Shown here: one piece after another, positions 3,973-52,819 of the stretch | Layout: every line of letters starts with the position of its first letter | How positions within the stretch are numbered: position 1 is the stretch's first letter | Assembly: GCA_009841615.1 (NCBI GenBank) | Contig: VXLL01000027.1 | Coordinates: 1,223-65,222 of the forward strand | Direction of reading: 5' to 3' | DNA: 64,000 bases | Origin: Gammaproteobacteria bacterium | GTDB taxonomy: Bacteria > Pseudomonadota > Gammaproteobacteria > Pseudomonadales > Azotimanducaceae | Made by a program: the position numbers and the translations under genes | The notes under the pieces: generated by a model | The model's input: the letters and a program-made list of their open reading frames with translations, nothing else | Told to the model about the DNA's origin: nothing | Database searches by the model: none

Positions 3973-5916
3973 TTGAAACGAGCTACGCCTAGCCGCGTTC
4001 TTAGTTTACTGAAGAAATCGAGTTCACTGAGTTATGCCCAACTAGCAGAAAATTTTACGGCACCGCGGAGTCTTGCGGACGTATTACACTCCCTTGAGAA
4101 CAGTGAAACGATCGTTTGCGATCAGCGTGGCAAATACCAGTTGTCGCGCCGTACTCAACGATTAGATCAGCTACGGTCTTTTTTTGAACGTCAATACACT
4201 GGCGTAGCCGAAAACGCTAGGGGTCTTTGGCATTTTCGATCTCTAACGCCAAATTCACCTCCAAACGTCCTAATAAGAGGCAGCAAAGACCTTCTTAACG
4301 GCGAAATCGTAACCATAGAAATCGATGAAGTCGATATAGATCATTATTACGGTAAGGTCGTTGCCAAGATTCCAGCAGAAGATGAAGCCAGCCGCGCAGC
4401 ACTTGCGCTTCTCACAGCGTATGAAGTGCCACACGGCAACCCTTGGAATCCAAAGCGCAAAAGATTCTCGGAGTTCATAAGTGAACAGTCGGTGCAGGAT
4501 CGCGTTGATTTGCGCAAATACCCGTTCGTAACCATCGACGGAGAATCAGCGAAAGACTTTGACGACGCAGTGTATGTTGAGCCTCAAACTGCTGGCGGTT
4601 GGCGCATGTTGGTAGCTATTGCTGATGTCGCACACTACGTTTATCCCAATGACGAGCTAGACAGAGAAGCAAGACGACGTGGAAATTCGGTGTATCTACC
4701 GGATCGCGTCGTACCGATGTTACCGGAGGATTTATCCAACGGAATTTGTTCGCTCAAACCCGATCTAGATCGATTGGTCTTGGTGTGCGAAATGCAACTA
4801 ACCACAACAGGTAAAACCGAAGCGTTTAAGTTTTACGAAGCGGTGATTCGGAGTGCTGGACGTCTGACTTACTCGGAGACAGTTTCTGTATGCCGTGGTG
4901 AAGAATTGCGCGATCGCACGCCGGCGATAAATGCATCGCTAAAGGCTTTCTACCAAGCATTCCGTGTAGTGCGCCAACAGCGCGAACAGCGTGGTGCACT
5001 AGACTTTACTTCTCGAGAGACAACAGTAAAAGTGCAGAACGGCGAGCCGATTGAAGTCGTCGCGGTGCGACAAAACGAAGCCCATCAGATGATCGAAGAA
5101 GCCATGATCTTAGCGAACGTTTGCGCCGCGCAACATCTACAAAAGAACAATCTCAATCCCCTCTATAGAGTGCACACGAGTCCTCGTCCAGAAGCACTCA
5201 AAGAGCTGCAATCTACGCTACACCAGTCCCACATATGCAAATTTGATCTCGAGGAGTGCAATTCTCAGAAGATTCAGTATTTGCTAAATGAACTCCGCCG
5301 GTCGAGCAAAGATTCATGGATATGGGAGCTACAAGTACTACGAGCAATGCATCAAGCAAGATATTCGTTTCTTAAAAACCAACACTTTGGTCTTGCATTA
5401 ACGGAATATGCACACTTCACCTCTCCGATACGTCGATATGCCGATCTCCATCTCCACAGATTAATCAAGACTACATTGAAGTCTTCGCGAGAGAAATTAA
5501 AGAGAGACCCAGAACTTGCCTACTTGGGCGAAGACTTATCTGAGTGTGAACGTCGCGCCACAAGTGTTTCCCGCAAAGTCGACCATTGGTTAAAGTGTCG
5601 ATTGCTGAAGAAGATGAGTGGTAAAACATTTGGTGGTGTTATTTCTGGAGTGGAGGAGTTTGGGATATTCGTAGAGCTCGATCATTACTGTGTTTCTGGG
5701 TTAATTCACGTGACTGACCTCGGAGACGACTACTATGTTGCTCAGGGACCGGTGATGCAAGGAACGCGCAGCGGAGTCGAATATCGTTTAGGCGAACGTC
5801 TACAAGTAGTAGTTGTTTCTGTGGATGTCGAATTGTGTCGTATTGACTTGATTGAGTCGAAGCCTCGGCAAAAACGTCACGAATTTCGTCGTGGTAAACT
5901 AAAGTTTCATCGCTAG
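3973..5916 (+). CDS. rnr: Ribonuclease R (RNB-family 3'-5' exoribonuclease)
   Basis: RNB-domain motifs are present (TIDGESAKDFDDAVYV, HFGLALTEYAHFTSPIRRYADLHLHR) plus a C-terminal S1-like region (GVISGVEEFGIFVEL). It is followed by rlmB as in E. coli. The TTG start is uncertain. Confidence 0.85.
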   Translation: MKRATPSRVLSLLKKSSSLSYAQLAENFTAPRSLADVLHSLENSETIVCDQRGKYQLSRRTQRLDQLRSFFERQYTGVAENARGLWHFRSLTPNSPPNVLIRGSKDLLNGEIVTIEIDEVDIDHYYGKVVAKIPAEDEASRAALALLTAYEVPHGNPWNPKRKRFSEFISEQSVQDRVDLRKYPFVTIDGESAKDFDDAVYVEPQTAGGWRMLVAIADVAHYVYPNDELDREARRRGNSVYLPDRVVPMLPEDLSNGICSLKPDLDRLVLVCEMQLTTTGKTEAFKFYEAVIRSAGRLTYSETVSVCRGEELRDRTPAINASLKAFYQAFRVVRQQREQRGALDFTSRETTVKVQNGEPIEVVAVRQNEAHQMIEEAMILANVCAAQHLQKNNLNPLYRVHTSPRPEALKELQSTLHQSHICKFDLEECNSQKIQYLLNELRRSSKDSWIWELQVLRAMHQARYSFLKNQHFGLALTEYAHFTSPIRRYADLHLHRLIKTTLKSSREKLKRDPELAYLGEDLSECERRATSVSRKVDHWLKCRLLKKMSGKTFGGVISGVEEFGIFVELDHYCVSGLIHVTDLGDDYYVAQGPVMQGTRSGVEYRLGERLQVVVVSVDVELCRIDLIESKPRQKRHEFRRGKLKFHR

Positions 5917-5935
5917 TCTGAAGGTACGAACGACA

Positions 5936-6679
5936 GTGTCAATAGAGTCGAACATAGTATGTGGAATACATAGTGCGAAGTCGTTCTTGAGCACTCAACC
6001 CGACAAAGTTCGCAGGGTTCTTGTCGCTGAGAACTACCACGGTGCAAAGTTGCACGAGATTGTGACCTTAGCGAAACAAAACCGCATACAAACAAAGCCC
6101 GTGCCGCGTTCTTATCTCGATCGACTCGCGGCCAGAGTTGCGCATCAAGGAGTGGTTTTAGAAGTGCGAGCTTTTCGTGCGCACTCCGACGCCGACTTAG
6201 AAGACAGGTTGGAACATTGGAAATGTCCATTGATCTTAGCCCTCGACTCGATTCAGGATCCTCGTAACTTAGGTGCTTGCCTGCGTTCTGCTGAAGGAGC
6301 TGGTGTTAACGCTGTCATTGTGGGTAAAAATCGTAGTGCTCCTTTAACTGCTGTTGTTCATAAGACTTCGGCCGGCGCGCTGGATTCAATTTTCTTGGTA
6401 GAGGTTTCTAACCTAGTTCGCTGTCTTTCAAATTTAAAGGAGCAGGGTTGTTGGGTTGTGGGTGCCTCTGACCACTCTGATACTCAATATACTGCTATCA
6501 ATTACCGGGATCCGACGGTTTTGGTTATTGGTGGCGAAGCTAAAGGACTACGACGCCTAACGTCGGAAATTTGTGATCAGATTGTTTCCATTCCTATGTA
6601 TGGTGCCGTTCCCAGTTTAAACGTCGCGGTAGCAACCGGAGTAATCTTGTTTGAGGCAACGCGACAGAGAACAGTTTAA
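5936..6679 (+). CDS. rlmB: 23S rRNA (guanosine-2'-O)-methyltransferase RlmB (SpoU/TrmH family)
   Basis: SpoU motifs are present (LDSIQDPRNLGACLRSAEGAGV, VIGGEAKGLR, IPMYGAVPSLNVAVATG). It lies directly downstream of rnr. Confidence 0.85.
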   Translation: MSIESNIVCGIHSAKSFLSTQPDKVRRVLVAENYHGAKLHEIVTLAKQNRIQTKPVPRSYLDRLAARVAHQGVVLEVRAFRAHSDADLEDRLEHWKCPLILALDSIQDPRNLGACLRSAEGAGVNAVIVGKNRSAPLTAVVHKTSAGALDSIFLVEVSNLVRCLSNLKEQGCWVVGASDHSDTQYTAINYRDPTVLVIGGEAKGLRRLTSEICDQIVSIPMYGAVPSLNVAVATGVILFEATRQRTV

Positions 6680-6785
6680 TCTGTCATTCTACAATGGACA
6701 CGATAGTCGCACATCATAGGGACTTTATTTTTCCTGAAACTGTCTAAAGTAATTATTGAATGTGATTCTATAAGACAGTACCGCC

Positions 6786-7820
6786 ATGAACGCCAAGTCT
6801 AGGTCAGGTCATTTTCCAACTGACAATCCACGTACTGTAAAGCACGTTTCCATAATTACACTTGTCTGTCTACTCATGGTTGCTTCAAGTAGTGTCAGCG
6901 GAAGGACTGCGATCGGTGAACTCTATGGGGAACTCAGGAGCTTTCTCAAAAAGCCTATAGAAGTTGAGTATAGTGCAATCAGCGATTTTGAAGTGGCTGA
7001 TTCCGAATTGTTGGATTATGTTTCGGCGGCCCTTTTCAGCGATGACTCAGAAAAAGTTGATGAAATTCTCGTCGAATTGTTTAATTACGCACTTTCGGTA
7101 AACGTCCATCGTTGGTTAAATACGCAGCCACCTCCCATAAGGAATTTTTCTTCAGAACCCGGTCTTCGGGATTTCTTGATACAGCTCTGGTTCTTCGAGC
7201 AAGAAAAACTTGAATCTGAATTGAAATCCTATGAGGAAGTGAGACTCCCGTGGTCTAGAATCCCAAAAATCTTAGTAGTACTGTTTCCCCGGGATCGAGA
7301 AGTACACGACTTTATCTGGTCAATCCATAATACTTTGGAACCGACGGAACCTGCCGCAACTCTAATGCTGTTAGACAGTGGAGAGTTCCAGACTCCGAAA
7401 GCGAACAATCTTCGAATAGCAACTCTAACCTCGGACGGGCCAGAGATTTTTAGGTTGATTGCGGCACGCTCTCTTGGAAGATTTCAATCAACTGAAGGAT
7501 TCGAAACTTTGTTAGCTACACTCCGCGATTCGGATAACCGAAGTCTGGTGGCTGTAGTCATTGAAGCAATCATCCTACATGGGTACTCAGTCCTTCCCTA
7601 CGCTCAGGAAATCCGCGAAGTAGCCGAACGTTTTGGCGTGGATGAAGATACGAAGCTTGCGGTTCTGACTGATCATATCGTGTTTCCTACACCGTATGAT
7701 CTTACCTTTTTTGGTGAAGACGCATCCACGAATCGATTCGTGAGTGCACATAGAGACTTGGAACGGATGACGGTTAACCAGTCTAAACTACAGGCACGAG
7801 CTGAAGAACCGCAACCCTGA
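6786..7820 (+). CDS. Hypothetical secreted or membrane-anchored protein
   Basis: 344-aa ORF with an N-terminal hydrophobic segment (VSIITLVCLLMVASSSVSG). I recognise no motif. It lies between rlmB and rpsF and is followed by a hairpin plus T-run. Confidence 0.55.
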   Translation: MNAKSRSGHFPTDNPRTVKHVSIITLVCLLMVASSSVSGRTAIGELYGELRSFLKKPIEVEYSAISDFEVADSELLDYVSAALFSDDSEKVDEILVELFNYALSVNVHRWLNTQPPPIRNFSSEPGLRDFLIQLWFFEQEKLESELKSYEEVRLPWSRIPKILVVLFPRDREVHDFIWSIHNTLEPTEPAATLMLLDSGEFQTPKANNLRIATLTSDGPEIFRLIAARSLGRFQSTEGFETLLATLRDSDNRSLVAVVIEAIILHGYSVLPYAQEIREVAERFGVDEDTKLAVLTDHIVFPTPYDLTFFGEDASTNRFVSAHRDLERMTVNQSKLQARAEEPQP

Positions 7821-7863
7821 TTACGTCGCTAATTGAGCGAAAGTTTGTAAAATCTTCGATCCC

Positions 7864-7890
7864 GCAGCTACTTAGCTGCCTTTTATATTT
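7864..7890 (+). terminator. Candidate intrinsic terminator
   Basis: Perfect 6-bp stem GCAGCT (7864-7869) / AGCTGC (7874-7879) with loop ACTT, followed by CTTTTATATTT. Confidence 0.45.
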
Positions 7891-7947
7891 ATTCCTTGTT
7901 TCACGACTCGACTTGTGGTCGGAGACTTTTGCCAAAGGGAACAATCC

Positions 7948-8631
7948 ATGCGACATTACGAAATTGTGTTCATCGTTCACCCTGACCAATCTGAGCAGGT
8001 ACCGGGAATGATCGAACGATACAAAGCTATGATCGAACGGGATGGTGGCGCGATCCATCGGTGTGAAGACTGGGGTCGTCGGCAGCTAGCCTATCCGCTC
8101 GCAAAAATTCATAAAGGGCACTATGTACTCTTGAATATTGAAGTGCCTGCTAATACTTTGGCGGAACTTGAGAGTTCATTTCGCTTCAACGACGCAGTAC
8201 TAAGAAACCTGATTTTGTCTAGAAAAGAAGCTGTCACTGAGATGTCGAAACTGTACGCAGCCGAGCTGCGAGAACAAGAGCGTGAGCGAGAGCGCGAGCG
8301 ACAGCGTGAAGAAGATATGGCTGCACGTCAACGTGTCCGCGACGACGAATCCGAAGATGAGACCGACGGAGCTGAAATGGAAGCGATGACTGCAGTTGAA
8401 GAAGAACACGAAGGTGAACCAGCAAAAGATGAGGCCGATGTCGCGGTAGAGCCTCCTCCGGAAGAAGCTGAAGAGTCGTCCTTAGAAGAAGAGTCTGGTA
8501 CCGATGACCAAACTCAGGCTGAAGTCGTTGAAACGGAACCTGAGGAAGAAACTGAGCAAGAGGAAGAAACTGAGCAAGAGGAAGAAACTAAGCAAGAGGA
8601 AGAAGAGGAGAAAGAGGAGAAAGCGGAATGA
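7948..8631 (+). CDS. rpsF: 30S ribosomal protein S6 with a roughly 100-aa acidic C-terminal extension
   Basis: [25 protein letters not shown]...WGRRQLAYP is the canonical S6 core. ATG at 7948 is preceded by AAAGGGA. The tail is rich in Glu and Asp. Confidence 0.9.
8542..8595 (+). repeat. 3 x 18-bp in-frame tandem repeat (GAGGAAGAAACTGAGCAA) inside the rpsF tail
   Basis: Units lie at 8542-8559, 8560-8577 and 8578-8595; the third carries one substitution. Together they encode [18 protein letters not shown]. Confidence 0.9.
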
Positions 8632-8852
8632 TTAGAAACGTTAGACGCCGTCGTACCTGCCGATTCACCGCTGACGGCGTGAAAGAAATTGACTACAAAG
8701 ACCTCGAAACGCTCAAGCAGTATATTGGAGAGACCGGGAAAATTACGCCTGCTCGCATGATGGGTACTAGCGCCCGTTACCAACGCCAGTTGGCCAGGGC
8801 AATAAAACGTGCCCGGTACCTTGCGCTTTTGCCCTACACTGATCAACATTAG
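8628..8852 (+). CDS. rpsR: 30S ribosomal protein S18
   Basis: [23 protein letters not shown]...[24 protein letters not shown] is near-identical in pattern to E. coli S18. The start overlaps the rpsF stop (ATGA). Confidence 0.95.
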
Positions 8853-8865
8853 AAGAGGGGTCATC

Positions 8866-9312
8866 ATGAATGTTCTACTGCTAGATCGCGTTACGAACCT
8901 CGGTGATATTGGAGATGAAGTAAAGGTAAAGAACGGATACGCTCGAAACTTCTTGATTCCTCAGGGATTAGCACTGAAGGCGACACCAGAAAACCGCAAG
9001 ATTTTTGCGGACCGAGAGGAAGAATTGCGCGCCCAAGCGATCGAAAAGTTAGAAGGTGCAGAGAAACGCGCAGCACAATTAGAAGATCTCGAAGTCACGA
9101 TCCTACAGCGTGCTTTGGGCGAAGGCCGGCTGTACGGATCCGTCGGGCCGGTAGAGATCTCTCGCGCCTTAGCAAACCTCGGTATTGAAGTCAATAAGAG
9201 CGAAATCAAGATGCCCCTTGGACCGATCCGCGAAATCGGCGAGTTTGATGTTGATATTCAGGTCCACGCGGATGTCTCGCGTACCATCCATGTGATTGTC
9301 GCACCGAATTAG
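8866..9312 (+). CDS. rplI: 50S ribosomal protein L9
   Basis: MNVLLLDRVTNLGDIGDEVKVKNGYARNFLIPQGLA matches the L9 N-terminus. ATG at 8866 is preferred over the longer ORF start at 8809, which overlaps rpsR. Confidence 0.9.
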   Translation: MNVLLLDRVTNLGDIGDEVKVKNGYARNFLIPQGLALKATPENRKIFADREEELRAQAIEKLEGAEKRAAQLEDLEVTILQRALGEGRLYGSVGPVEISRALANLGIEVNKSEIKMPLGPIREIGEFDVDIQVHADVSRTIHVIVAPN

Positions 9313-11023: not shown

Positions 11024-11479
11024 ACTCACGACGGTTAAAAAAAGTGCTAGGTACAGTCGCTACTCAAGCTTCTTCAACTTTAATTTGCCGGTAGACTCTC
11101 ACCTACCTTTCTCACCTATGTCTCGTGGGGATGCGAGGTCCGCGTAGTGCAGGCAACAGCTCTACGATATTCAACAAAACAAGGGGTATCAAACTGCCGA
11201 GAGGAGCTTATTGACACTGTGCTTTGAAGCGATTTTCTTCCGCCGTGTCAGTCAGTTTGACTAGAATGAGATTTTTCTCATCAATCCGTTCTGTACGTGT
11301 TAAAGTAGCGTGCGTGGACAGTAACTCATCAGTTTGTAGGAATTTGACTTATGACCTGGAATCTTCAACCTGAAATCTCACAGCATTTACATGACAACCA
11401 AACCTCAAAAATCGCTTCGTCTCTGAGGCGCTTTCGAATTGACAATGAACATTGCAAATTGTCGAGTCCGGCGACTGTG

Positions 11480-14077
11480 ATGAGTTTCATTGCGAAATCA
11501 AAGAAACTCATCGTCTTCTGGCTTGTATTGGTTGGCACGTTTTTTGTAAACCACTCAGTAGTCGGTCAAACCGAAAATGAGTGTCCTGTTCCGCCTGACA
11601 CTGATCCAGTTGAAGATCCCGAGGTTACTGCACAACAAGTCGTTGCAGACGAAACTAAATTAGGAGATTTCACACGACTAACACGAGATCGGTTTAAAAA
11701 CTATTCTTTGACGGTTACAAGTATCACACAAATTGCATATTTTGGATGTGTCCTTAGGGAAGACGAGGGACCTTGGCGCACGGATTCTGTCTATCCCATT
11801 CTTATGACTCCGTTTGGACGAGTGGTATTTCACACGAAGGACATGACTCTTTCTGGTAGGCTGCTTAATCCCGCCATCCTGGCGACCATTTATACCGCAC
11901 TAGGTGTCTCTCGCCAAGATATAGCAGACCTGAGATCTTCTGATCCCGATACCGTGGCAAAAGCCCGTCGATCGATCCTCCTTACACTGGCAAGAGAACA
12001 GGATGCAGCTTTTGACGCTACCGCACCCATACCCGGCGTGCGTCCAGGTATTCCGGGTGCTAAAGGCCACGTAGCAGTCTATGTAGGACGGGCGTTTCAG
12101 ATTCCTTTAATAGTACTCGGTGGGTTTGACTTAAACGCATCACATGTAGCTGACGAAGTTGTCGATTACGGCGACCCAAGTGTGACTGCTAGTGATGTGG
12201 TTGACCGAGAAACGTTGAAGCAATTTGTTATCGAAGCCGGAAATTACTTTATCGATGCACAGAGAGATACTCGAGATGGTATTCTTGGATCGGTCGCGAA
12301 AGTCGCGATGCGAGATCCAAACGGACCTTGGCGACATGGTTCAGTGTACATTTACATACTAGACCTCAGGAGCAACATTATTTTCTTTCACGGTGCGAAT
12401 CCGAACAGGTTTGAATTTCGACCGTTGATTGCAACCGTTCGAGACGCGGTGACTGGCGAGTTGATTTTGCCGCAGGTCATCGATGCTGCGAAGAGTAGTC
12501 CTGAAGGGGGATTTGTGCGATATTACTTCGACGATCCTACTGATGACACGGATAGTGCGGATACACCCAAGGTGGGGTATGCTCGTGAGTTTACAGGGAC
12601 TGTCAGACGACAAGACGGTAGCGTCATCCCATCGAACTACATCGTTGGGTCTGGCTTTTATCTAACTGACCCAGCAGTTGTTACGATACGCCAAAACAAA
12701 GTCGTCCAAACCGTGCTTCCCCAAGTCTTGCGAACTATGACTGCAAGTACCGTGGATGCTATTTCTGACCGTATTGAGCAAGTGACATCCGACTCGAGCG
12801 CTTCTGCCTCTGCGGGAATCAGATTAGGTGGTACATCTACATTCGCTAATGCTCTGATCGGGAAACGGAGCGGTTCGTATTTGTCGAACTGGCTGGCTGA
12901 GGGATCTTACTTCGTGCTCCCGTTGAATGCAGCTCACGGCGGCAACGGCTTTCTCAGTCACTTTACTCTTTGGGCGAACGCTGACCACCGAAAACTCTCT
13001 GATGAGAACATGCAAGTCATGGCCTACGACGGTAACGTGACTAGTGCTAACATCGGTATCGATCGTAAAGTAGGCGAGAACTTAGTTGGTGGAGTTTCCA
13101 TGACCTTTGCGAGTGGGACAGTGGACTACGAAGACCCAGAAGCAGCCATGGGGGAACTATCAACATCAATATCGAGTATCAATCCCTACCTCGGATGGCA
13201 GATGGCAGACAATGCTCGAGTGTGGGCTGCGGCCGGTTTTGGTTGGGGCGAGGTTGAGTTTACTGAATCAACGAACTCGCAAGCCAGTGATCTGTCTCAG
13301 ACTATGTTCGCCGCGGGTATTGATCTGTCTCTGATGTCCAGTGAGAACCTGCTCAAGGGCGGTACGACGAGTATCAAATTGAAGGGTCAGTCAGCTTTCA
13401 CGACCGCAGATGTCGACGAAGGCGTCAGTTTAGAACAAACAAGTCTAGACGCTTCCCGACATCGAGTGTCGTTTAAAGGTCTGTATGAAAGGAAATTAAA
13501 GTCGGAGGCAGTGATTACCCCTTCGATCGAAGCTGGTTGGAGGATTGACGGTGGAGACGGTACTACAGGAAACGGACTCGAGGTTGGCGCAGGACTGGGA
13601 TATTCCGCGGGCCGGCTAGTGCTTAAACTCAACTCCCAGACCTTACTCACGCATTCGGATGTCGATGATTTCGAAGATTGGAGTTTTAGGGGCATGATCG
13701 CGTTCCAGCCGAGTAGCGATGGCCACGGACTCTCTATGTCCCTAGGTTCTTCGTGGGGACTGGCGAATCGAGAGCTTGAAAGCGACGCGCTACGGTCAAT
13801 GAGCGCTGCTCGACTATCGAATCAGCGCGAGACGTTGATGTCAACGTCGCCGTGGATACATGCCGCAATTCGATACGACTTTAGCAAACCACAAGGACTT
13901 GGCTTGTGGACATCCTATCGTGGTACTGATCACGATCACCAAATCCGCGTATTGCAACTGGGTTTACAGTTCCGAGCCACTCAAGGTTTTAATGCTGGAC
14001 TGCAGATTGGAAGACAAGAGAGTATTCATAGGTCGCCTCATCACAGTATCGAGCTTCGCGGTACGCTACGGTGGTGA
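11480..14077 (+). CDS. Autotransporter-like outer-membrane protein with a passenger of two Cache-like modules
   Basis: A signal-peptide-like N-terminus starts at Met 11480 (MSFIAKSKKLIVFWLVLVGTFFVNHSVVGQ). There are two internally similar modules (GPWRTDSVYPILM... and GPWRHGSVYIYILDLRSNIIFFHGANP...GGFVRYYFDDP...KVGYAREF). The second resembles an sCache_2 fold. The C-terminal roughly 390 aa shows an alternating beta-strand pattern and ends in ...IELRGTLRW, with a terminal aromatic residue. Confidence 0.6.
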   Translation: MSFIAKSKKLIVFWLVLVGTFFVNHSVVGQTENECPVPPDTDPVEDPEVTAQQVVADETKLGDFTRLTRDRFKNYSLTVTSITQIAYFGCVLREDEGPWRTDSVYPILMTPFGRVVFHTKDMTLSGRLLNPAILATIYTALGVSRQDIADLRSSDPDTVAKARRSILLTLAREQDAAFDATAPIPGVRPGIPGAKGHVAVYVGRAFQIPLIVLGGFDLNASHVADEVVDYGDPSVTASDVVDRETLKQFVIEAGNYFIDAQRDTRDGILGSVAKVAMRDPNGPWRHGSVYIYILDLRSNIIFFHGANPNRFEFRPLIATVRDAVTGELILPQVIDAAKSSPEGGFVRYYFDDPTDDTDSADTPKVGYAREFTGTVRRQDGSVIPSNYIVGSGFYLTDPAVVTIRQNKVVQTVLPQVLRTMTASTVDAISDRIEQVTSDSSASASAGIRLGGTSTFANALIGKRSGSYLSNWLAEGSYFVLPLNAAHGGNGFLSHFTLWANADHRKLSDENMQVMAYDGNVTSANIGIDRKVGENLVGGVSMTFASGTVDYEDPEAAMGELSTSISSINPYLGWQMADNARVWAAAGFGWGEVEFTESTNSQASDLSQTMFAAGIDLSLMSSENLLKGGTTSIKLKGQSAFTTADVDEGVSLEQTSLDASRHRVSFKGLYERKLKSEAVITPSIEAGWRIDGGDGTTGNGLEVGAGLGYSAGRLVLKLNSQTLLTHSDVDDFEDWSFRGMIAFQPSSDGHGLSMSLGSSWGLANRELESDALRSMSAARLSNQRETLMSTSPWIHAAIRYDFSKPQGLGLWTSYRGTDHDHQIRVLQLGLQFRATQGFNAGLQIGRQESIHRSPHHSIELRGTLRW

Positions 14078-14243: not shown

Positions 14244-15626
14244 ATGGTGAAATCAAAGGTTCTTTTCGCCTGTCGCGAGTGTGGTGCCTCGTATCCTAAA
14301 TGGCAGGGACAGTGTGCAACCTGCGGAGAGTGGAACTGCTTGGAAGAAGTCAAGGTTTCACAAAAACAAAAAAAGTCAGGTGTCGCGGCGGGAGTTGGGT
14401 TTTCTGGCAGTGGGACTGAGATCACACGATTAGCTGAAGTCAAGCTTGAATCAAGCCAGCGTATTCTGACCCACATTCACGAGTTCGACCGTGTTTTAGG
14501 TGGTGGTTTAGTACCCGGTTCAGTGGTATTGATAGGTGGTGAGCCTGGTGCTGGAAAGTCAACCTTGCTGATACAGATGGCAAGCGAGATAGCGCGCGAT
14601 TTGGGGTGCGTCTACGTCAGTGGAGAAGAGTCCATTCAGCAGATTGCCAGTCGCGCTATACGTCTTGGGATTTCGGACCGTGAGGTTCAACTGGCGACAC
14701 TAACAGATGTCGGACACGTGATTTCCTTAGTGGAACATACAAAACCTACGGTGGTAGTCGTAGACTCTATCCAAGTGATGCATTCCGATGAGATAGAGAG
14801 TGTTCCGGGGAGTGTCAGCCAAGTTCGAGAGTGCGCGTCTGAGCTGACGCAACTCGCAAAACAAACAGGCACAATCTTCGTACTCATTGGACATGTAACT
14901 AAGGAAGGAAATCTCGCTGGTCCCAAAGTTCTGGAGCACATGATTGATTGCTTTGTGATGTTAGAAGCTCCGATTGGTAGTCGTTTCCGAATGCTACGAG
15001 GAATTAAGAACCGGTTCGGCGCGGTAAATGAACTAGGTGTGTTTGCGATGACAGACCGAGGGTTGCGAGAAGTCGCTAATCCCTCGGCGATTTTTTTAGA
15101 ACGTACTACAGAACCAACGGCCGGCAGTGTAGTTACCGTTACTTGGGAAGGTACGCGGCCATTGTTAGTTGAAATTCAGGCACTGGTTGACGATGTGCAA
15201 GGAGGATATCCACGTCGTGTTTCTGTAGGTCTGGACACTCAACGATTGGCTATGCACTTAGCGATCATGCACCGACACTGTGGAATCTCACTAGCGGATC
15301 AAGATGTGTTCGCCAACGTCACCGGCGGTATCAAGGTGGCAGAGACCGCCGTAGACTTAGCCACTCTGATCGCAGTGTATTCCAGTTTTAGAAATCGCGC
15401 GCTTCCCCACGATCTGGTTGTGTTTGGTGAATTAGGACTGACGGGTGAAATACGACCAGTTCCCAATGGGCAAGAACGTCTGCGCGAGGTACAAAAACAC
15501 GGTTTTACACGGGCGATAGTTCCACTAGCAAACAAAGCCAAAAAGCCTTTTGCAGGGGTCGAAGTTTCTTACGTCCCTACTCTTAGCAGCGCACTAGATG
15601 TTCTAAACGAAATTTTGACCGGTTAA
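14244..15626 (+). CDS. radA: DNA repair protein RadA/Sms
   Basis: Has an N-terminal zinc ribbon (CRECGASYPKWQGQCATCGEWN), Walker A (GGEPGAGKSTLL), the KNRFG motif and a Lon-like C-terminal domain. Confidence 0.95.
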   Translation: MVKSKVLFACRECGASYPKWQGQCATCGEWNCLEEVKVSQKQKKSGVAAGVGFSGSGTEITRLAEVKLESSQRILTHIHEFDRVLGGGLVPGSVVLIGGEPGAGKSTLLIQMASEIARDLGCVYVSGEESIQQIASRAIRLGISDREVQLATLTDVGHVISLVEHTKPTVVVVDSIQVMHSDEIESVPGSVSQVRECASELTQLAKQTGTIFVLIGHVTKEGNLAGPKVLEHMIDCFVMLEAPIGSRFRMLRGIKNRFGAVNELGVFAMTDRGLREVANPSAIFLERTTEPTAGSVVTVTWEGTRPLLVEIQALVDDVQGGYPRRVSVGLDTQRLAMHLAIMHRHCGISLADQDVFANVTGGIKVAETAVDLATLIAVYSSFRNRALPHDLVVFGELGLTGEIRPVPNGQERLREVQKHGFTRAIVPLANKAKKPFAGVEVSYVPTLSSALDVLNEILTG

Positions 15627-15677
15627 GGTATAGAAACTTACACGATATATGTGCTAGTACCTATAGTTTGAGTGGTA

Positions 15678-17201
15678 TTAGTCCTCTTGGGAACGTAGTT
15701 CGATAAGGTGTCGTACGCCGTAACTGCCTACGCGTAGATCGTCGATCACTAACGGTTCATACCAATAATAACCCACTTCCTCAAGAATTTGTTGCGAGAC
15801 ATCTTCAGATAGTACCGTGCCTTGAACCTCAACAATATTTGGTCGCTCGACGAACCCCTGTTTATCAACGTCGAATTCAACGATGACGCTACCATTTTTT
15901 TGGTTACCTTCGATAAACAACGTGTGGGTCGGATTAACTCTATGTTTGGGTCGGTGTACTATAGCATTCCGAAGGTGGGGAGGGGCATTCGGTGGCAAAA
16001 CCATCGGTACTTGTGATCGAGGATCCGGTGAGCTGTCACCAAGAGCACGACCTGGACTTGTGCTATCTTCGCGAGCAATTACGTATTTGACATTGGTGAG
16101 TGCTGTTGTTCGTGTAGGTTGGCCATCTACGTACTTAGGTATGTATTTAAACTGTTTAATGGCACTAAGAGCCGATTGATCGAAGATCTTTGGTGGGTTA
16201 GCTTCTATAACCTCGACATTTTCGACAGAGCCGGTTTCGGCTATCTCAAATCGAACAATTACGTAGCCCTCGACGTTGTCTAACAATGCTTGTTCCGGAT
16301 ATTCTGGTTCAACTTTGCTCAATGATTGCCAATCTTGGTTGAATCCAAATTCGATCTTGTGTAGCACCTCTGTCGAGGGTTTGTCCGGATCAAAACTGAA
16401 CTGAGATACGGTGGTGATTGCAGCGGTCTCAAATTCACTAGCATCGGAATAAATCACTTCAGGGTTTTCTACCTCACCATCAGCGTTGATATCAAATTCG
16501 ACGATGACGTGCCCATGTAGCTGTTTTTCCTTGGCTTCAGCGGGATATGTAGCGACTACTGCTTCATTGGGATTACTGTCTAAAGAAAAGATAAACATGT
16601 GCGACACAATTTGATCTGGTTTAAATCGCGTTGTTTCAAATTTCATCCTCCCTGCGGCGTCGAGCGCTGCGGCTTCAAAGACACCAGCTGGTTCAGCACC
16701 AACAACTTGTTGACCACGTACTTCACCCCACTCCGATACACTAAACTGAACAACAACAAAACCTTCGGCACCACTCTCTAACGCTGTTTGCGGATATTTC
16801 ACTTTTACTGGAACCATAGGCTCGGAATCGAGTGAAAAGAAAAAGCTTTTCGTGGCTCCCTTCATATGCCGTGCAGGTCCACCGAGCTGTTCATATCGAT
16901 GGTTTTTAATTGCTTGTAGCGCATAGAGTTCGAATTTGCCAGGTAATGAAGAATTGACGATACATGGGTTTTCGACGTCGCCCTCTTCGGTAACATCAAA
17001 CATCACAGTGACCATACCTTCCAGCAGATCTGTCCAGAGTGCTTTAGGATAGTCCGGCAGTGGAGCTTCGATTTCTTTGAGGAGATTTCCATCAGCTGGG
17101 GCCGTCGTTACCGCTCGCACAAAAACACTACTCATCAATGCGATTGTCAGAACAGACAACGCGACACATAGTGGGATTTGCTTTGACTTATCAGTTCCCA
17201 T
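15678..17201 (-). CDS. Secreted protein made of 4-5 tandem TonB C-terminal (TonB_C) domains
   Basis: A signal peptide is followed by repeated units of the form YP..A.....G.V.V.F.V...G.V.N....., for example YPKALWTDLLEGMVTVMFDVTEEGDVEN, YPQTALESGAEGFVVVQFSVSEWGEV, YPAEAKEKQLHGHVIVEFDINADGEVEN and YPEQALLDNVEGYVIVRFEIAETGSVEN. A fifth unit is degenerate. There is no TonB-like N-terminal TM anchor. Confidence 0.7.
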   Translation of the reverse strand: MGTDKSKQIPLCVALSVLTIALMSSVFVRAVTTAPADGNLLKEIEAPLPDYPKALWTDLLEGMVTVMFDVTEEGDVENPCIVNSSLPGKFELYALQAIKNHRYEQLGGPARHMKGATKSFFFSLDSEPMVPVKVKYPQTALESGAEGFVVVQFSVSEWGEVRGQQVVGAEPAGVFEAAALDAAGRMKFETTRFKPDQIVSHMFIFSLDSNPNEAVVATYPAEAKEKQLHGHVIVEFDINADGEVENPEVIYSDASEFETAAITTVSQFSFDPDKPSTEVLHKIEFGFNQDWQSLSKVEPEYPEQALLDNVEGYVIVRFEIAETGSVENVEVIEANPPKIFDQSALSAIKQFKYIPKYVDGQPTRTTALTNVKYVIAREDSTSPGRALGDSSPDPRSQVPMVLPPNAPPHLRNAIVHRPKHRVNPTHTLFIEGNQKNGSVIVEFDVDKQGFVERPNIVEVQGTVLSEDVSQQILEEVGYYWYEPLVIDDLRVGSYGVRHLIELRSQED

Positions 17202-17272
17202 ATCTCCTCCTGATCAGTAGTCTTAAAAAAATTATATGTCGTCTATCTGACTTGACACGACCGTGCCACACC

Positions 17273-17470
17273 TTACTGTTGTAGGAGTGGATAGTAAATT
17301 TTGAGTTGGATTCGGCTTAGGGGACTCGGTCTTTGGGTTTGCTTTTGTAGCCATCGCCAGTAGTAGCCGAGTTCTTGCAGAATTTGATCGAAATTTATTG
17401 TATAGCAATCCTGTGGGACAACGCTCAGCGAATTCCCGATGACGAAAATTTGCTCCGCTCTAGTTTCCAT
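17273..17470 (-). pseudogene. Probable relic of a third multi-TonB_C paralog (C-terminal fragment only)
   Basis: The 65-aa ORF contains DQILQELGYYWRW...RIQLKIYY. This parallels the C-termini of the flanking paralogs (QQILEEVGYYWYEP...RHLIELR and ERILDEVSFFWYVP...KHRIELT). It overlaps the stop of the upstream paralog by 11 nt. Confidence 0.35.
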
Positions 17471-19001
17471 CGAAAGTCAGTTCAATCCGGTGTTTAACCC
17501 CGTTAACTCGTATTGGTTGATCGTTCTTAAGCCATGGCACGTACCAGAAGAAGCTGACCTCGTCAAGAATGCGTTCCTTGATTTCTTCCGGTAAGCTAGT
17601 GTCGATGACCTCGAGTATTTTTGGTCCTTCAACGTAGCCGTGGCCGTTCACATCGAATTGAACGATGACACTACCGTCATCATGATCCCCAGTCAACTGT
17701 AATTCGTAGATTGGATCGAGTTTGATATTGCGCATAGACTCGGGTCGCCTGTCTTCAATTACCGGTTGCCTCCTTGGATTTTCAGACTGCCTTCTTCGAT
17801 TCGGCGTTCGCCGTCCTTGACGTTGCGGTCGAATCTCCTGCGTATTCTGCCGAGCGTTTTGGTTTGGTGTTCCGAGTGCAAATCGAAGTCTGTTGCGTTC
17901 CCCTTGAACTCGAACTGGTTTTCCGTCAACATACTTCGGTAAGTAAGTAAACTGCGCCGTAGCCGCTAGAGCAGCTTCGTTGAAAACATCAGGTGGTTCT
18001 GCTTCGAGCACCGACAAGTTGTCGACGGATCCTCTTTCGTCAACGTCGAACCTCACGATTACGTATCCTTCAATTCTGTTTAGAATTGCCGCACGAGGAT
18101 ATTTGGGCACTTTTTTGGTCAGAGCGTGGAGGTTCCGATTTAGGATGAACTCTACTTTGTGATAGACGTTTTGAGCGGGCTTATTAGGATCAAAAATAAA
18201 TTGAGATACCGCGTCCACTGCAGGCTGATCAAATATGCTATCACTGGAGTAAACCACATAGGCTCTGTCGACACTACCTTCAGAGTTGATGTCAAAGTTC
18301 ACGATTGCGTGTCCCTGTATACCTTCTTCCTTAGCTTGATTTGGATATTCGGGGATTACTAGATTGTTTGGTTCGCTATCCAATGAAAAAATAAATTTAT
18401 GATGCATTGTTTGGCGTTCTAAAAATCGATTCGAGTCAAACCTGAACTGTCTTGCAGCCTCCAAAGCGGCATCTTCAAACACCTTAGCAGGTACTGCGGC
18501 TGGCGTCGAGAAGTTGCGCACTTTACCGTTAGATTTAACGTCAAACTTAACCACGACATATCCTTGGAATCCGAACTCCAAAGCAGCGTAAGGATATTTA
18601 GGAGAAACAAAGTCTTTCGGATTTGAATCTAGAGTGAAATCAACAGTCGTACTGACTCCCTCAATGAGTTCACGAGGACGGGTCAAGTTTTCATAACGGA
18701 AGTCTTTCACAGCTTGAAGTGCGTAGAGCTCGAATATACCGGGGTACGTGGAATTGGTGATACAAGGGTTTTGCACTCTACCGCGTTTAGTTACGTCAAA
18801 CATGACCGTGACCTGGCCATCTTGACCCTTTTGCCACACTCCTTTAGGATAGGGCGCGTTCGGAGTAGCTGTTTCTTTTAGCCGATTGTCGTCGACGGCT
18901 GAGATGATTGTTGTTTGTGCAAGAATTGTCCCAACTAGTGCGGTATAAATCGCCAAAATTAGGGCGTGTCTTCGAATTTGCTTTGTCTCAACCGCTCGCA
19001 T
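17460..19001 (-). CDS. Secreted protein made of 4-5 tandem TonB_C domains (paralog of 15678-17201)
   Basis: Same architecture and collinear similarity to the neighbour (YPKGVWQKGQDGQVTVMFDVTKRGRVQN, YPYAALEFGFQGYVVVKFDVKSNGKV, YPNQAKEEGIQGHAIVNFDINSEGSV, YPRAAILNRIEGYVIVRFDVDERGSVDN). An Arg/Pro/Gln-rich linker precedes the last domain. Confidence 0.7.
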   Translation of the reverse strand: MRAVETKQIRRHALILAIYTALVGTILAQTTIISAVDDNRLKETATPNAPYPKGVWQKGQDGQVTVMFDVTKRGRVQNPCITNSTYPGIFELYALQAVKDFRYENLTRPRELIEGVSTTVDFTLDSNPKDFVSPKYPYAALEFGFQGYVVVKFDVKSNGKVRNFSTPAAVPAKVFEDAALEAARQFRFDSNRFLERQTMHHKFIFSLDSEPNNLVIPEYPNQAKEEGIQGHAIVNFDINSEGSVDRAYVVYSSDSIFDQPAVDAVSQFIFDPNKPAQNVYHKVEFILNRNLHALTKKVPKYPRAAILNRIEGYVIVRFDVDERGSVDNLSVLEAEPPDVFNEAALAATAQFTYLPKYVDGKPVRVQGERNRLRFALGTPNQNARQNTQEIRPQRQGRRTPNRRRQSENPRRQPVIEDRRPESMRNIKLDPIYELQLTGDHDDGSVIVQFDVNGHGYVEGPKILEVIDTSLPEEIKERILDEVSFFWYVPWLKNDQPIRVNGVKHRIELTFDGN

Positions 19002-19176
19002 TGGTCCTCCGAAATAATTTCTGCCAAAATTTTAGACCACGCACTTATCAAGACATTTGTAACAAAAATATAGTCAATGTGTGAAGACCATTTTGATTGA
19101 TAGAAGTCGCTAGTCGTTGCCTGGCACAACACTAAAATACCTTCTTCACTAATTCACAGAAGTTGTTGTTCCGCAA

Positions 19177-20430
19177 ATGTTTAATCAACAAAAACTGAGC
19201 GACCTTGATCCCGAAGTGTGGGAGTCCATCGTCGCTGAAGATCGTCGTCAAGAAGAGCACATAGAACTGATCGCATCAGAGAACTATGTCTCCCCAGCAG
19301 TGCTCGAAGCACAAGGGTGCGGGATGACAAATAAATATGCAGAAGGCTATCCAAGTAAACGGTATTACGGCGGTTGTGACTATGTAGATCAGGTAGAGGT
19401 ATTGGCGATTGAACGAGCGAAAAAGCTCTTTGGAGCCGACTATGTGAATGTACAGCCGCATTCGGGTAGTCAGGCTAATGCATCAGCTTACTTAGCGTTG
19501 ATGGAACCCAATGATGTAGTTTTGGGAATGAGCCTTTCAGAAGGTGGCCATTTAACCCATGGTTCACCCGTAAATTTTTCGGGGCGAATTTATCGCGCAG
19601 TCCAGTACGGCGTACGACCCAACGACGGTCTTGTGGACTACGATGATGTTTTAGCAATCGCAAAAGCACACCAACCTAAACTCGTCGTCGCTGGTTTTTC
19701 CGCGTACAGTCGAAAACTGGACTGGGCTAAGTTTCGGGAGATTGCAGATTCTGTGGGCGCATATCTGTTGGTGGATATGGCTCACGTTGCAGGTTTAGTA
19801 GCCGCTGGCGTTTATCCCAATCCAATCCCACATGCGGACGTTGTAACTACGACGACGCACAAAACACTGGCTGGCCCAAGGGGTGGATTGATCTTGGCTC
19901 GAGCTAACCCAGACATTGAGAAAAAGCTCAATTCTGCTTTGTTTCCGGGAACCCAAGGGGGACCATTGATGCACATCATCGCCGCGAAAGCGGTGTGTTT
20001 TAAGGAAGCCGCGGCACCAGAATTTCGAGACTATCAAATTCGGGTTGTGGAAAATGCACGTACGATGGCTAGAGGATTCGTGAAGCGCGGCTACAAGGTA
20101 GTATCGGGTGGTACCGATAACCATTTGTTCTTATTGGATCTAATCGATAAGGAGATAACCGGAAAAGCAGCCGACGCTGCGTTGAATCGAGCTAACATCA
20201 CGGTCAATAAGAACACTGTACCTGGAGATCCACGCTCACCGTTCGTGACCAGTGGATTACGCATTGGCTCCGCGGCGGCGACTCGTCGTGGTTTTGGGAC
20301 GGAGGAATGTTCTACGTTAACTCAATGGATGTGCGACATTTTAGACGACATTTCCAACGACAACATGGTTGCGTCCGTACGGATAAAAGTACGCGAGTTG
20401 TGCCAAAAGCATCCAGTTTACACGCAGTGA
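19177..20430 (+). CDS. glyA: Serine hydroxymethyltransferase
   Basis: Contains [18 protein letters not shown], the PLP-lysine motif [14 protein letters not shown], and [24 protein letters not shown]. Confidence 0.95.
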
Positions 20431-28847: not shown

Positions 28848-30944
28848 TTACCAAAAACGACGTTTAATTCCTACGAAAAATTGTCTTAAATCCGCCGGGA
28901 AATAGCGGTGTTTTCCGAACGCGAAATCCGCACGATCGGCATAGTAGGTGTCGAAGACGTTGAGTATTCTACCGAAGATCGACCAGTGTTTACTGAGCTG
29001 AAAATGCATCCGAAAGTTCACGACATTGTGCCCACCATACCGCGCGGTATTCGCAGCATTTAGGTAGTGTGATCCGATCCGATTGAATTCTACTTCAGCC
29101 GTACCGGCAGAGCCTATGGTTGCTGACCAACGAGCATGTGCGAGGACGCGGGGCGCGGTATCCATTTGATTGCCGGAAAAAATCACTTCGCCTCTGGCGA
29201 GATTCCGGTTAAAGTCGTACACGTGGTTAGAAAAGGTACTCGCGACAGAAATCTTATGCACGTCATTGACTCGCCAATCAACTTCGACTTCGACCCCTCT
29301 CGAATCTGTCGCGCCATCGCTTACATTCATTCCTTTGGCATCTCGGAAAATGAGGTTGGAACTCGAGTCAAAGTAAACCGCGATGGAAAACTCGAGAGAG
29401 CGCCACGACGATTGCCAACCCAATTCAACTGAACGTGTATTTTCACTCTTAAGATCAGCGACAGTCTGACCACTTTGAAGTCGATACAGCTCTGTAATCT
29501 GTGGTGGTCGATAACCAATCGATGAGAGTACCCAAAAATTCGAAAGAGCCGTGGTTTGGAATTTATAGCCGATTCTTGCGGCTATACTTGTGAAACTGTC
29601 GGATCGATCACTGGGTCGGGTGTACAGACAGCCCCCGAAAGCACAGATTGAACCATCGTCGCGGGAGTTTCCGTCCAAATGACGATTGTCATACTGATAT
29701 TGCACATGCTCTACGCGAAGGCTCTCTTCTACTTCGTGTCGGTTGTCCCAGAGCTTGGTAGCACTCTGAAAGACTGCGTAGGTCCCCCCTGTTACCTTGA
29801 AGTCATAGTGTGTGCCAGTTGGTCGAGTCGCCTGCAAGAATTCCGATCCTACTGTTGGATGTTGTTGATGTTGTACCAGCGAAGCTCCGAACCATTCCAG
29901 TTGCGCGCCTAGCTTAATGCTCAGAGTATTGAATTGGGTCATCCGAAACAGTATTGCTCCTGCACTCATTTGTTCGTTGTCCTCACGCGGCTGACCTGGG
30001 AGAAAGTGTTGCAGGAAGTTCATTTGCGACATACGTGCGTAAGGGTATATGTATAAACCACTACCGTTGTCGATTTGGCTAGACACACGGAACGAGTCGG
30101 CGTTGCGAAACGCCTCAGGATTAGGATTGGCTCGCCGGAAGTTACGATCTTTGTATGATTGGTAGCCCAGTACGTACCCGCCGGTTTCTTGTCTCAGAGA
30201 TGTCATTGAGAGAGAATGGGTCGCATCCCAACTACCAAATTTCGAAGTCCATCCAACATTGAGTTTTTGTTGCGCGTACCCTGTATCTCGTCGGAATCCA
30301 TTCGTGTCTGTGGCATGAAATTTCATATGCGCTCTTCTGGTGTACCACGTCATACGAACTTGCCTGTAGTCATGCTGTCCAGATTCCAAACTCAGTGCAC
30401 TGGTCCCCTCACTTCCTACGAAGGGTCGGACGTTAATCACCCCGCGCATAGCGTTGCCGCCGTAGATAGCACTCGCTGGACCTCGTAGGACGGCTACGCG
30501 ATCAGCTTGCTCAATGTTGAGCTCAAACAATCCGTTGACGTTGCAAAATCCAATAGGACGCACGGGAATGTTATCCTCGAGAAGAAGGTAGGCTCCACAC
30601 GCGCCCGAACCTGCCAGTACGGCTGAACGAAGTCCCGTGAGATGTTCTTGACCTGAATTCTTTACAACCCATATACCAGGTGTCCTTGCGAAAATTTCGT
30701 GTGGATGAAGAGGTCTCGCGAGCTCAAGATCTTGATTATCGACTATCGTCAAACTACCAAGATTGGACCGAGTCGGTATATCGCGAGGATCGCCTTTGAC
30801 AATGACTTCTTCATTTAATTCGATGTCATCGGAGGGTTCGTTTCCGACAACCACGATGCCAAGAAAGAGAAAAGAGCACGCAATAAGAGTCGCTTGCACA
30901 CACGCGCGATCTACCAAAGTTAAGACCGTCACCAGGCTAGGCAT
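28848..30944 (-). CDS. TonB-dependent outer-membrane receptor
   Basis: A signal peptide is followed by a plug domain (EEVIVKG..., RTPGIWVV, AVLRGPASAIYGGNAMRGVINV) and a long beta-barrel ending in ...FFVGIKRRFW. Confidence 0.85.
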   Translation of the reverse strand: MPSLVTVLTLVDRACVQATLIACSFLFLGIVVVGNEPSDDIELNEEVIVKGDPRDIPTRSNLGSLTIVDNQDLELARPLHPHEIFARTPGIWVVKNSGQEHLTGLRSAVLAGSGACGAYLLLEDNIPVRPIGFCNVNGLFELNIEQADRVAVLRGPASAIYGGNAMRGVINVRPFVGSEGTSALSLESGQHDYRQVRMTWYTRRAHMKFHATDTNGFRRDTGYAQQKLNVGWTSKFGSWDATHSLSMTSLRQETGGYVLGYQSYKDRNFRRANPNPEAFRNADSFRVSSQIDNGSGLYIYPYARMSQMNFLQHFLPGQPREDNEQMSAGAILFRMTQFNTLSIKLGAQLEWFGASLVQHQQHPTVGSEFLQATRPTGTHYDFKVTGGTYAVFQSATKLWDNRHEVEESLRVEHVQYQYDNRHLDGNSRDDGSICAFGGCLYTRPSDRSDSFTSIAARIGYKFQTTALSNFWVLSSIGYRPPQITELYRLQSGQTVADLKSENTRSVELGWQSSWRSLEFSIAVYFDSSSNLIFRDAKGMNVSDGATDSRGVEVEVDWRVNDVHKISVASTFSNHVYDFNRNLARGEVIFSGNQMDTAPRVLAHARWSATIGSAGTAEVEFNRIGSHYLNAANTARYGGHNVVNFRMHFQLSKHWSIFGRILNVFDTYYADRADFAFGKHRYFPADLRQFFVGIKRRFW

Positions 30945-52642: not shown

Positions 52643-52819
52643 GCTAATGTATTTGCTAGTGTTGGTGATTTGAATTCGTTGAAGTCTGGTCACGCTCAAA
52701 CTATTGCTGGTCGCGTTGTTGATTATGCTTGTTTGAGATCGGAGTCATCAGATTTCGCATCCCTCGTTGTAGTGTAAATTTAGATAATTGGTTCATCGAA
52801 ATTGAGAGAATTTCAAACT

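Follow-up and report, generated by a model that had tools for sequence, protein, structure and literature searches.

A pair of multi-TonB_C genes between radA and glyA

The DNA analysed here, a stretch of 64,000 nucleotides from an uncultured marine Gammaproteobacteria bacterium (contig VXLL01000027.1, positions 1,223 to 65,222 of the forward strand; the window in what follows), carries two adjacent genes, geneA and geneB, that are flanked by radA and glyA (Table 1). An earlier note on this DNA had described them as paralogs of 507 and 513 amino acids (aa), each with four clear TonB_C units and a degenerate fifth, and this description held. Both open reading frames (ORFs) are intact, the proteins are 43% identical from end to end, and Pfam, NCBIfam, a family-built hidden Markov model (HMM) and AlphaFold2 agree on the four clear units and the fifth. 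TonB-dependent uptake is central to the nutrient acquisition of marine and host-associated Gram-negative bacteria, and TonB itself is usually regarded as a single-headed, motor-coupled protein. This locus instead holds a family, conserved and under selection, whose head domain is multiplied fivefold and uncoupled from the anchor. A GGAGG ribosome-binding site lies 5-7 nt 5' of the ATG in both genes, and the frames stay open for just 4 and 10 further codons beyond the start codons, which therefore leaves no space for a concealed N-terminal domain.

Table 1. Features of the radA-glyA region, in coordinates of the window
Feature	Positions	Strand	Remarks
radA	14244-15626	plus	flanks the geneA/geneB pair
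geneA	15678-17201	minus	ORF, 507 aa; paralog of geneB, matching five-domain layout
geneA domain 5 (residues 421-505)	15687-15941	minus	Pfam, HMM, AlphaFold2
geneA linker (residues 376-420)	15942-16076	minus	Pro/Ser-rich, 9 Pro, isoelectric point (pI) 10.6, predicted disordered
geneA domains 1-4 (residues 46-375)	16077-17066	minus	Pfam, HMM
geneA residues 1-30	17112-17201	minus	probable signal peptide, end V-R-A
Spacer between paralogs, 258 bp	17202-17459	minus	weak peptide echo QILQELGYYW of domain-5 helix
Promoter-like site (GTGTCA, 16 nt, TATAAT)	17231-17258	minus	before geneA; consensus match only
geneB	17460-19001	minus	ORF, 513 aa; exported-type protein, five TonB_C-fold domains
geneB domain 5 (residues 428-511)	17469-17720	minus	divergent TonB_C fold, without YP motif
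geneB linker (residues 378-427)	17721-17870	minus	Arg/Gln/Pro-rich, pI 12, predicted disordered
geneB domain 4 (residues 296-377)	17871-18116	minus	most canonical domain; 45% identical to head of the genome's 202-aa TonB
geneB domain 3 (residues 214-289)	18135-18362	minus	family HMM
geneB domain 2 (residues 131-208)	18378-18611	minus	F-x-L-D-S-x-P junction ahead; alignment, HMM
geneB domain 1 (residues 46-125)	18627-18866	minus	family HMM, AlphaFold2
geneB residues 1-28	18918-19001	minus	K/R-rich start, 16-residue hydrophobic core, A-Q-T; probable Sec signal peptide
glyA	19177-20430	plus	flanks the geneA/geneB pair

Domain layout and fold

Scanning with Pfam TonB_C (PF03544) recovered multiple stretches in both proteins, 5 in geneA (E 5.6e-60) and 4 in geneB (E 5.1e-59), with scores of 200.2 and 197.1 bits against a gathering cut-off of 24.6. 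The NCBIfam model tonB_Cterm likewise matched 5 stretches in geneA and 4 in geneB, and one NCBIfam TonB equivalog model matched 5 stretches in the geneB protein. The layout was drawn from three sources, namely an alignment of 18 family members, two AlphaFold2 models and the family-built HMM, and is identical in every aligned member. A poorly conserved leader of ~30 residues is followed by a short conserved strand (x-L-K-E-I), domains 1 to 4 (D1-D4), a disordered linker and a fifth domain (D5). The structure prediction that the earlier note had suggested agrees with this layout, as both models show a beta-beta-alpha-beta unit five times over (geneB, predicted local distance difference test (pLDDT) 81 and predicted template modelling score (pTM) 0.71; geneA, pLDDT 78.5 and pTM 0.58), with D5 of geneB modelled as beta-beta-beta-alpha-beta.

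The fold is that of the TonB head. In comparisons with the PDB, D4 matched best the C-terminal domain of Vibrio anguillarum TonB2 (2k9k), aligned over the whole domain, and could also be aligned with E. coli TonB. The top Foldseek matches in the PDB were TonB C-terminal domains (2gsk_B with a TM-score of 0.92 and probability 1.00; also 1u07 and 6i97_D). These were single-domain matches only, and the search returned no solved tandem TonB_C array. Complement C3 and alpha-2-macroglobulin appeared as multi-domain Foldseek matches and were set aside as noise (probability <0.1). A TolA identity was also rejected, as the AlphaFold2 models contain no helical segments beyond the leader and TolA structures were weak in Foldseek (E >0.1).

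The domains are joined in two ways. The D1-D2 and D2-D3 junctions carry an invariant F-x-L-D-S-x-P, and D4 and D5 are separated by the linker, whose Arg/Pro/Gln-rich composition in geneB had been pointed out before and is borne out here (pLDDT <50 in the model). Across the family the linker ranges from 0 (almost nothing) to ~60 aa, and in geneA and geneB it is basic (pI 10.6-12) and flanked by acidic domains. These features also bear on a different role, in which the proteins would be structural or tethering components of the envelope that bind peptidoglycan or outer-membrane parts as a spacer or scaffold, not TonB boxes. The invariant, rigid-looking junctions among D1-D4, the fairly high pTM values and the strongly basic linker between acidic domains would all suit such a role. 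The fold also serves outside TonB in this genome, in a 135-aa lipoprotein (lipobox L-M-G-C; G000:C37:24387-24794) that consists of a single TonB_C domain, and contact of Ton-system periplasmic domains with peptidoglycan has been discussed (PMC11658791). However, Pfam found no OmpA, LysM or SPOR peptidoglycan-binding domain in these proteins, a linker that is nearly missing in some members is a poor fit for an essential binding element, and most of the genus does without the family. We consider a structural role unlikely.

The N-terminus and the Ton systems of the genome

The sole hydrophobic segment of either protein is at the N-terminus, and it differs from a TonB anchor in how it is conserved. 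A small-x-small peptidase-type site ([AGVT]-x-[AGT]) falls at one alignment column in 16 of the 18 aligned members, and the A-Q-T of geneB reads A/T-x-A in its orthologs. Leader and anchor conservation were compared across the same five genomes. The leader is 51% identical in the geneB clade and 47% identical in one geneA-type clade, against 75% for the remainder of the protein, whereas the anchor of canonical TonB is 94% identical against 72% for the remainder of TonB. A helix that docks into ExbB/ExbD is conserved, while a signal peptide need keep only its physico-chemical pattern. By this comparison, the N-terminal hydrophobic segment evolves as a signal peptide does. The leaders lack the S-x-x-x-H motif found in the 241-aa and 287-aa TonBs of the same genome. 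Between the N-terminus and D1, which begins at residue 46, there is no Pro-rich rod, and the sole Pro/Arg-rich stretch lies between D4 and D5. The combination of anchor and rod that would mark an ordinary TonB was thus not found, in agreement with the earlier view of a signal-peptide-like N-terminus and no TonB-type anchor. We judge cleavage of the leader to be likely though well short of certain, and infer that the products are cleaved and soluble in the periplasm.

Gene context points the same way. The genome's real TonBs sit in exbBD clusters, among them a TonB2-type cluster on contig C3 (DUF3450-like, TtpC-like, ExbB, ExbD and a 202-aa TonB at G000:C3:105383-105991) and, on C24, two ExbD genes that adjoin the 241-aa TonB with its S-x-x-x-H anchor. 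The 287-aa TonB is on C4, and a TolQRA-like cluster lies on C13, away from geneA and geneB. The genome encodes at least 17 TonB-dependent transporter (TBDT) barrels. It also encodes a third multi-domain paralog, P0036, and neither exbB nor exbD is found beside any of the three, the ExbD genes of the genome lying elsewhere; nor was exbBD linkage seen at the ~10 family loci examined. We rejected the reading as an ordinary TonB because true anchors are so much better conserved, because the spacer is missing and because the genes lie in a different setting. With no conserved anchor, no periplasm-spanning rod and no exbBD linkage, the geneA and geneB proteins are most likely not energy transducers.

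One version of energy transduction has to be weighed separately. The leader could remain uncleaved and dock as a signal anchor to a remote ExbB/ExbD, with the four-domain array in place of the Pro-rich rod and the distal domain pulling on the transporter. The hydrophobic cores are long (16-18 residues, with Lys/Arg ahead), which fits an uncleaved signal anchor, and the TonB2 anchor pattern (V-G-x-x-L-x-Q) has a loose counterpart in the leader of geneB. Possible partners are present in ExbB/ExbD-like genes that have no tonB next to them (C3:66757-67796 and C3:157360-157764), and TonB2 operons of sister species encode anchored TonBs with 2-4 heads, so multi-headed transducers do occur. However, the array proteins are least conserved at the N-terminus, which has around half the identity of true anchors and carries the conserved A-x-A peptidase-type site; D1 starts only ~15 residues past the hydrophobic segment; and the domain most like TonB is D4, not the distal D5. 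Together with the absence of exbBD from the examined loci, this makes a signal-anchored TonB improbable.

Several further observations concern Ton-related genes. One tonB-less ExbB/ExbD pair precedes msbA- and lpxK-like genes (identified by sequence reading), and the other tonB-less ExbD sits near a contig end. P0036 (567 aa; G000:C3:41029-42732, minus strand) is strongly diverged with the same overall layout (Pfam TonB_C, E 3e-39, 4 stretches). A 140-aa ORF beside it (C3:42761-43183) has a D1-like domain only, and the two adjoin a MiaB-like gene, also identified by sequence reading, with no exbBD nearby. ORFs of 130-160 aa that resemble the 135-aa TonB_C lipoprotein are present in many genus members. 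In the window itself, the receptor at 28848-30944 proved to be a TBDT with Plug and barrel, as had been claimed. The supposed TonB_C protein at 52820 is a 427-aa TPR-repeat protein (52802-54085) whose TonB_C-like C-terminus stays below threshold (17.5 bits against 24.6). The description of the window as rich in Ton-related modules was overstated because this protein misses the cut-off. One relative encodes a comparable protein, with TPR and TonB_C, in its TonB2 cluster, where the gene is found downstream from tonB (L032 3523-4269).

Distribution, origin and selection

The family is restricted to a small lineage. Of the 25 species representatives of the genus, 7 have full-length relatives, in every case located between radA and glyA, and in six genus members without the family radA is directly followed by glyA. 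Since radA abuts glyA in these non-carriers, the family was inserted there in a subclade. A further 150 genomes, sampled from 44 genera of the family-level taxon, gave no match at E<=1e-60. A search of 5.8 billion proteins gave ~22 relatives, and a library of 1.8 billion representatives gave 18 matches at E<=1e-30. The related records, all metagenome-assembled genomes, are named OMG group bacterium, Pseudomonadales bacterium or Gammaproteobacteria bacterium, and NCBI labels the family members 'TonB family protein'. The remaining matches of a GTDB-wide pattern scan (L026-L030) differ in architecture and fall outside the family.

The same region holds a second gene of limited distribution. A 908-aa autotransporter-like gene lies between dnaB and radA (window 11351-14077) and is confined to genomes that also carry the TonB_C-array genes. 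In genus members that have neither, dnaB is immediately followed by radA in those cases for which the upstream flank could be obtained (L038, L041, L042). Orthologs of the 908-aa gene have weak precomputed Pfam matches (dCache_2, Autotransporter). Because this gene and the array share a subclade and a stretch, they represent two accessory exported-protein genes inserted in one housekeeping region.

The domains are related most closely to the lineage's own TonB. Outside its own orthologs, every domain finds its best match in the head of the genome's 202-aa TonB, with identities of 45-47% for D4, 38-39% for D1, 38% for D2, 26-30% for D3 and 22-33% for D5. In the domain tree each position, D1 to D5, forms its own clade across the paralogs, and the five-domain layout is therefore older than the gene duplications. 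We propose that the array was derived from this TonB2-type head by internal duplication, giving five domains, and that the whole gene may then have been repeatedly duplicated, lost and pseudogenised at this single radA-glyA site of the chromosome.

Copy number varies in this manner among carriers, from 1 to 3 at the locus, which makes it a small birth-and-death array. Most genomes have two copies; one copy is found in G020 and on the contig carrying P0013. G018 has three, the middle one broken, and the contig with P0015 has a truncated second copy. The geneB clade is clear-cut, and geneA-type copies split into at least two subclades. Consensus matches suggest that geneA and geneB each have their own promoter, and a TAAAAT element before geneB is kept in 4 of 5 relatives compared. 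The spacer between the two genes may conceivably be a remnant of a lost third copy. Its peptide echo shares 8 of 10 residues with the D5 helix of geneA (E 0.004 against a 15-sequence database), and the spacer has no DNA-level similarity to sister loci. The broken middle copy of G018 (L011 5886-7470) is at the equivalent place.

The family is under purifying selection, with a ratio of nonsynonymous to synonymous substitution rates (dN/dS) of 0.2-0.3. At the protein level it evolves 7-10 times as fast as radA and glyA (0.03), at about the rate of thiL next door. Fast change, together with variable copy number, pseudogenes and truncated copies in close relatives, and a lineage-restricted family at a single insertion site, could be read as traces of an arms race, in which periplasmic head arrays would act as decoys for incoming TonB-dependent bacteriocins or phage proteins, whose TonB boxes they would trap. 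In E. coli, soluble TonB fragments and TonB-box peptides weaken the action of colicins and phage phi80 (PMC9841981), which lends this idea a precedent. However, dN/dS is well below 1 and similar to that of thiL, the locus has no defence or mobile genes as neighbours, and none of the PADLOC defence models matched any of the three paralogs. We regard this explanation as very improbable.

Proposed function and significance

The TonB_C fold is known for one activity, in which a short extended segment such as a TonB box is bound by beta-strand addition. We propose that geneA and geneB encode Sec-exported, multivalent periplasmic proteins that would act as un-energised holders, buffers or competitors for partners bearing TonB boxes, a reading to which we give an even chance. 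D1-D4 would be held consecutively by their short junctions and D5 on its disordered, basic or Pro-rich tether, and the domains would bind peptide segments through the same strand addition, without force. The partners may be the TBDTs of the cell or incoming ligands that carry a TonB box. Binding of several TonB boxes or of peptidoglycan, or competition with TonB, had been put forward before and is plausible; the binding partner and the physiological role in the form proposed here are speculative. In E. coli, an overproduced periplasmic TonB domain inhibits import through TBDTs (Howard et al. 2001, as reported in PMC9841981), so one would expect a soluble array of natural origin to hold TonB boxes, buffer them or compete for them.

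Several points weigh against the proposal. A constitutive TonB competitor would be costly to a bacterium that relies on TBDTs. Signals of regulation were also missing: no Fur box was found in the whole window with <=3 mismatches allowed, and an Rfam scan of 15400-19400 gave no match at E<=1. To these are added the long hydrophobic cores and the tonB-less ExbB/ExbD genes described above. A stronger form of the holder and competitor reading, in which the proteins are 'anti-TonB' factors or TonB-box sinks that tune transporter access to limited TonB or trap the TonB boxes of bacteriocins and phages, seems to us rather unlikely. If it were true, such sinks would add to the Ton system an undescribed layer of regulation or defence, maybe shared with the arrays of other phyla.

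The consequences differ with the outcome. Force-free binding of TonB boxes, if it occurs, would make the arrays endogenous modulators of how transporters are energised, with a bearing on the allocation of scarce TonB among many transporters and on the natural resistance of cells to bacteriocins and phages that depend on TonB. Should the arrays be merely structural, the gain is a modest refinement of annotation, namely that 'TonB family protein' does not equal 'energy transducer'. Proteins with a leader and tandem TonB_C domains are numerous across bacteria yet unstudied.

Comparison with known systems

The earlier note had taken the multi-TonB_C layout to be unusual, which the phyletic survey contradicts. 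The representative-library search returned 9850 clusters at E<=0.001, and by the family-built HMM 137 of the best 150 of these have at least two TonB_C-like domains. A hydrophobic leader with the first domain within 90 residues was found in 71 of the 137, and 12 of the 71 have a lipobox-like site; the search favours multi-domain proteins, and the counts of 137 and 71 are not frequencies. The layout of leader plus tandem TonB_C is thus common across bacteria, and the lineage family itself is restricted. 'TonB family proteins' of other phyla (e.g., MCP5529102.1 of Opitutaceae) have a leader and then 2-7 tandem TonB_C domains, as here, and often lie in tandem gene clusters, as do geneA and geneB. 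However, the relation is at domain level only (E 1e-15 to 1e-30), and domain number and linkers differ. In an unrelated lineage, an ENA metagenome contig (L045 982-4412) has three adjoining TonB_C-only genes of 408, 458 and 242 aa, and multi-TonB_C tandem clusters therefore recur independently.

In the literature on characterised soluble multi-TonB_C proteins, we found only a remark on TonB9 (BT3896) and TonB10 (BT3898) of B. thetaiotaomicron, which have two TonB_C domains each, noted there as a 'unique domain structure' whose meaning is not known (PMC10350073). Like geneA and geneB, these have more than one PF03544 domain per protein. They differ in having two domains rather than five and in belonging to another phylum; TonB10 adds a Peptidase_M56 membrane domain, and neither protein has been characterised. 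Canonical TonB (TonB2-type, e.g., 2k9k and the genome's 202-aa TonB) shares the head fold with clear sequence homology, but has one head where the present proteins have five, and these lack its conserved anchor, pre-head Pro-rich rod and exbBD neighbours.

Anchored multi-head TonBs within the same genus (G002, G007, G022, G024) also have tandem TonB_C domains from the same TonB2-type head. Their genes follow a TonB2-type operon (DUF3450-like, TtpC-like, ExbB, ExbD, TonB) at all four loci (L017, G002:C1:2826000-2840000, 5629-9220; L018 in G007, 4972-8635; L019 in G024, 4919-7710; L020 in G022, 5474-8142). These proteins keep a TonB-like N-terminal anchor, lie directly after exbB-exbD-tonB and have 2-4 near-canonical heads with ~30-aa spacers. 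In contrast, geneA and geneB lie among housekeeping genes and have a leader that evolves as a signal peptide does, with five old and diverged heads that are directly connected. The anchors of the multi-head proteins begin MQK.IERYG... or MQSSF..., and by appearance they are genuine multi-headed TonB paralogs (NCBI MYD79425.1, 'energy transducer TonB'). Among carriers of the five-domain family, no multi-head TonB of this kind turned up in what was not a systematic check, and 1-3 single-head TonBs were seen at that position instead.

The periplasmic TonB C-terminal fragments of E. coli share with the proposed geneA and geneB products an exported head without anchor or motor, and they compete for TonB boxes and block transport. 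Those fragments are laboratory constructs with one head, whereas geneA and geneB are natural, five-headed and conserved under selection.

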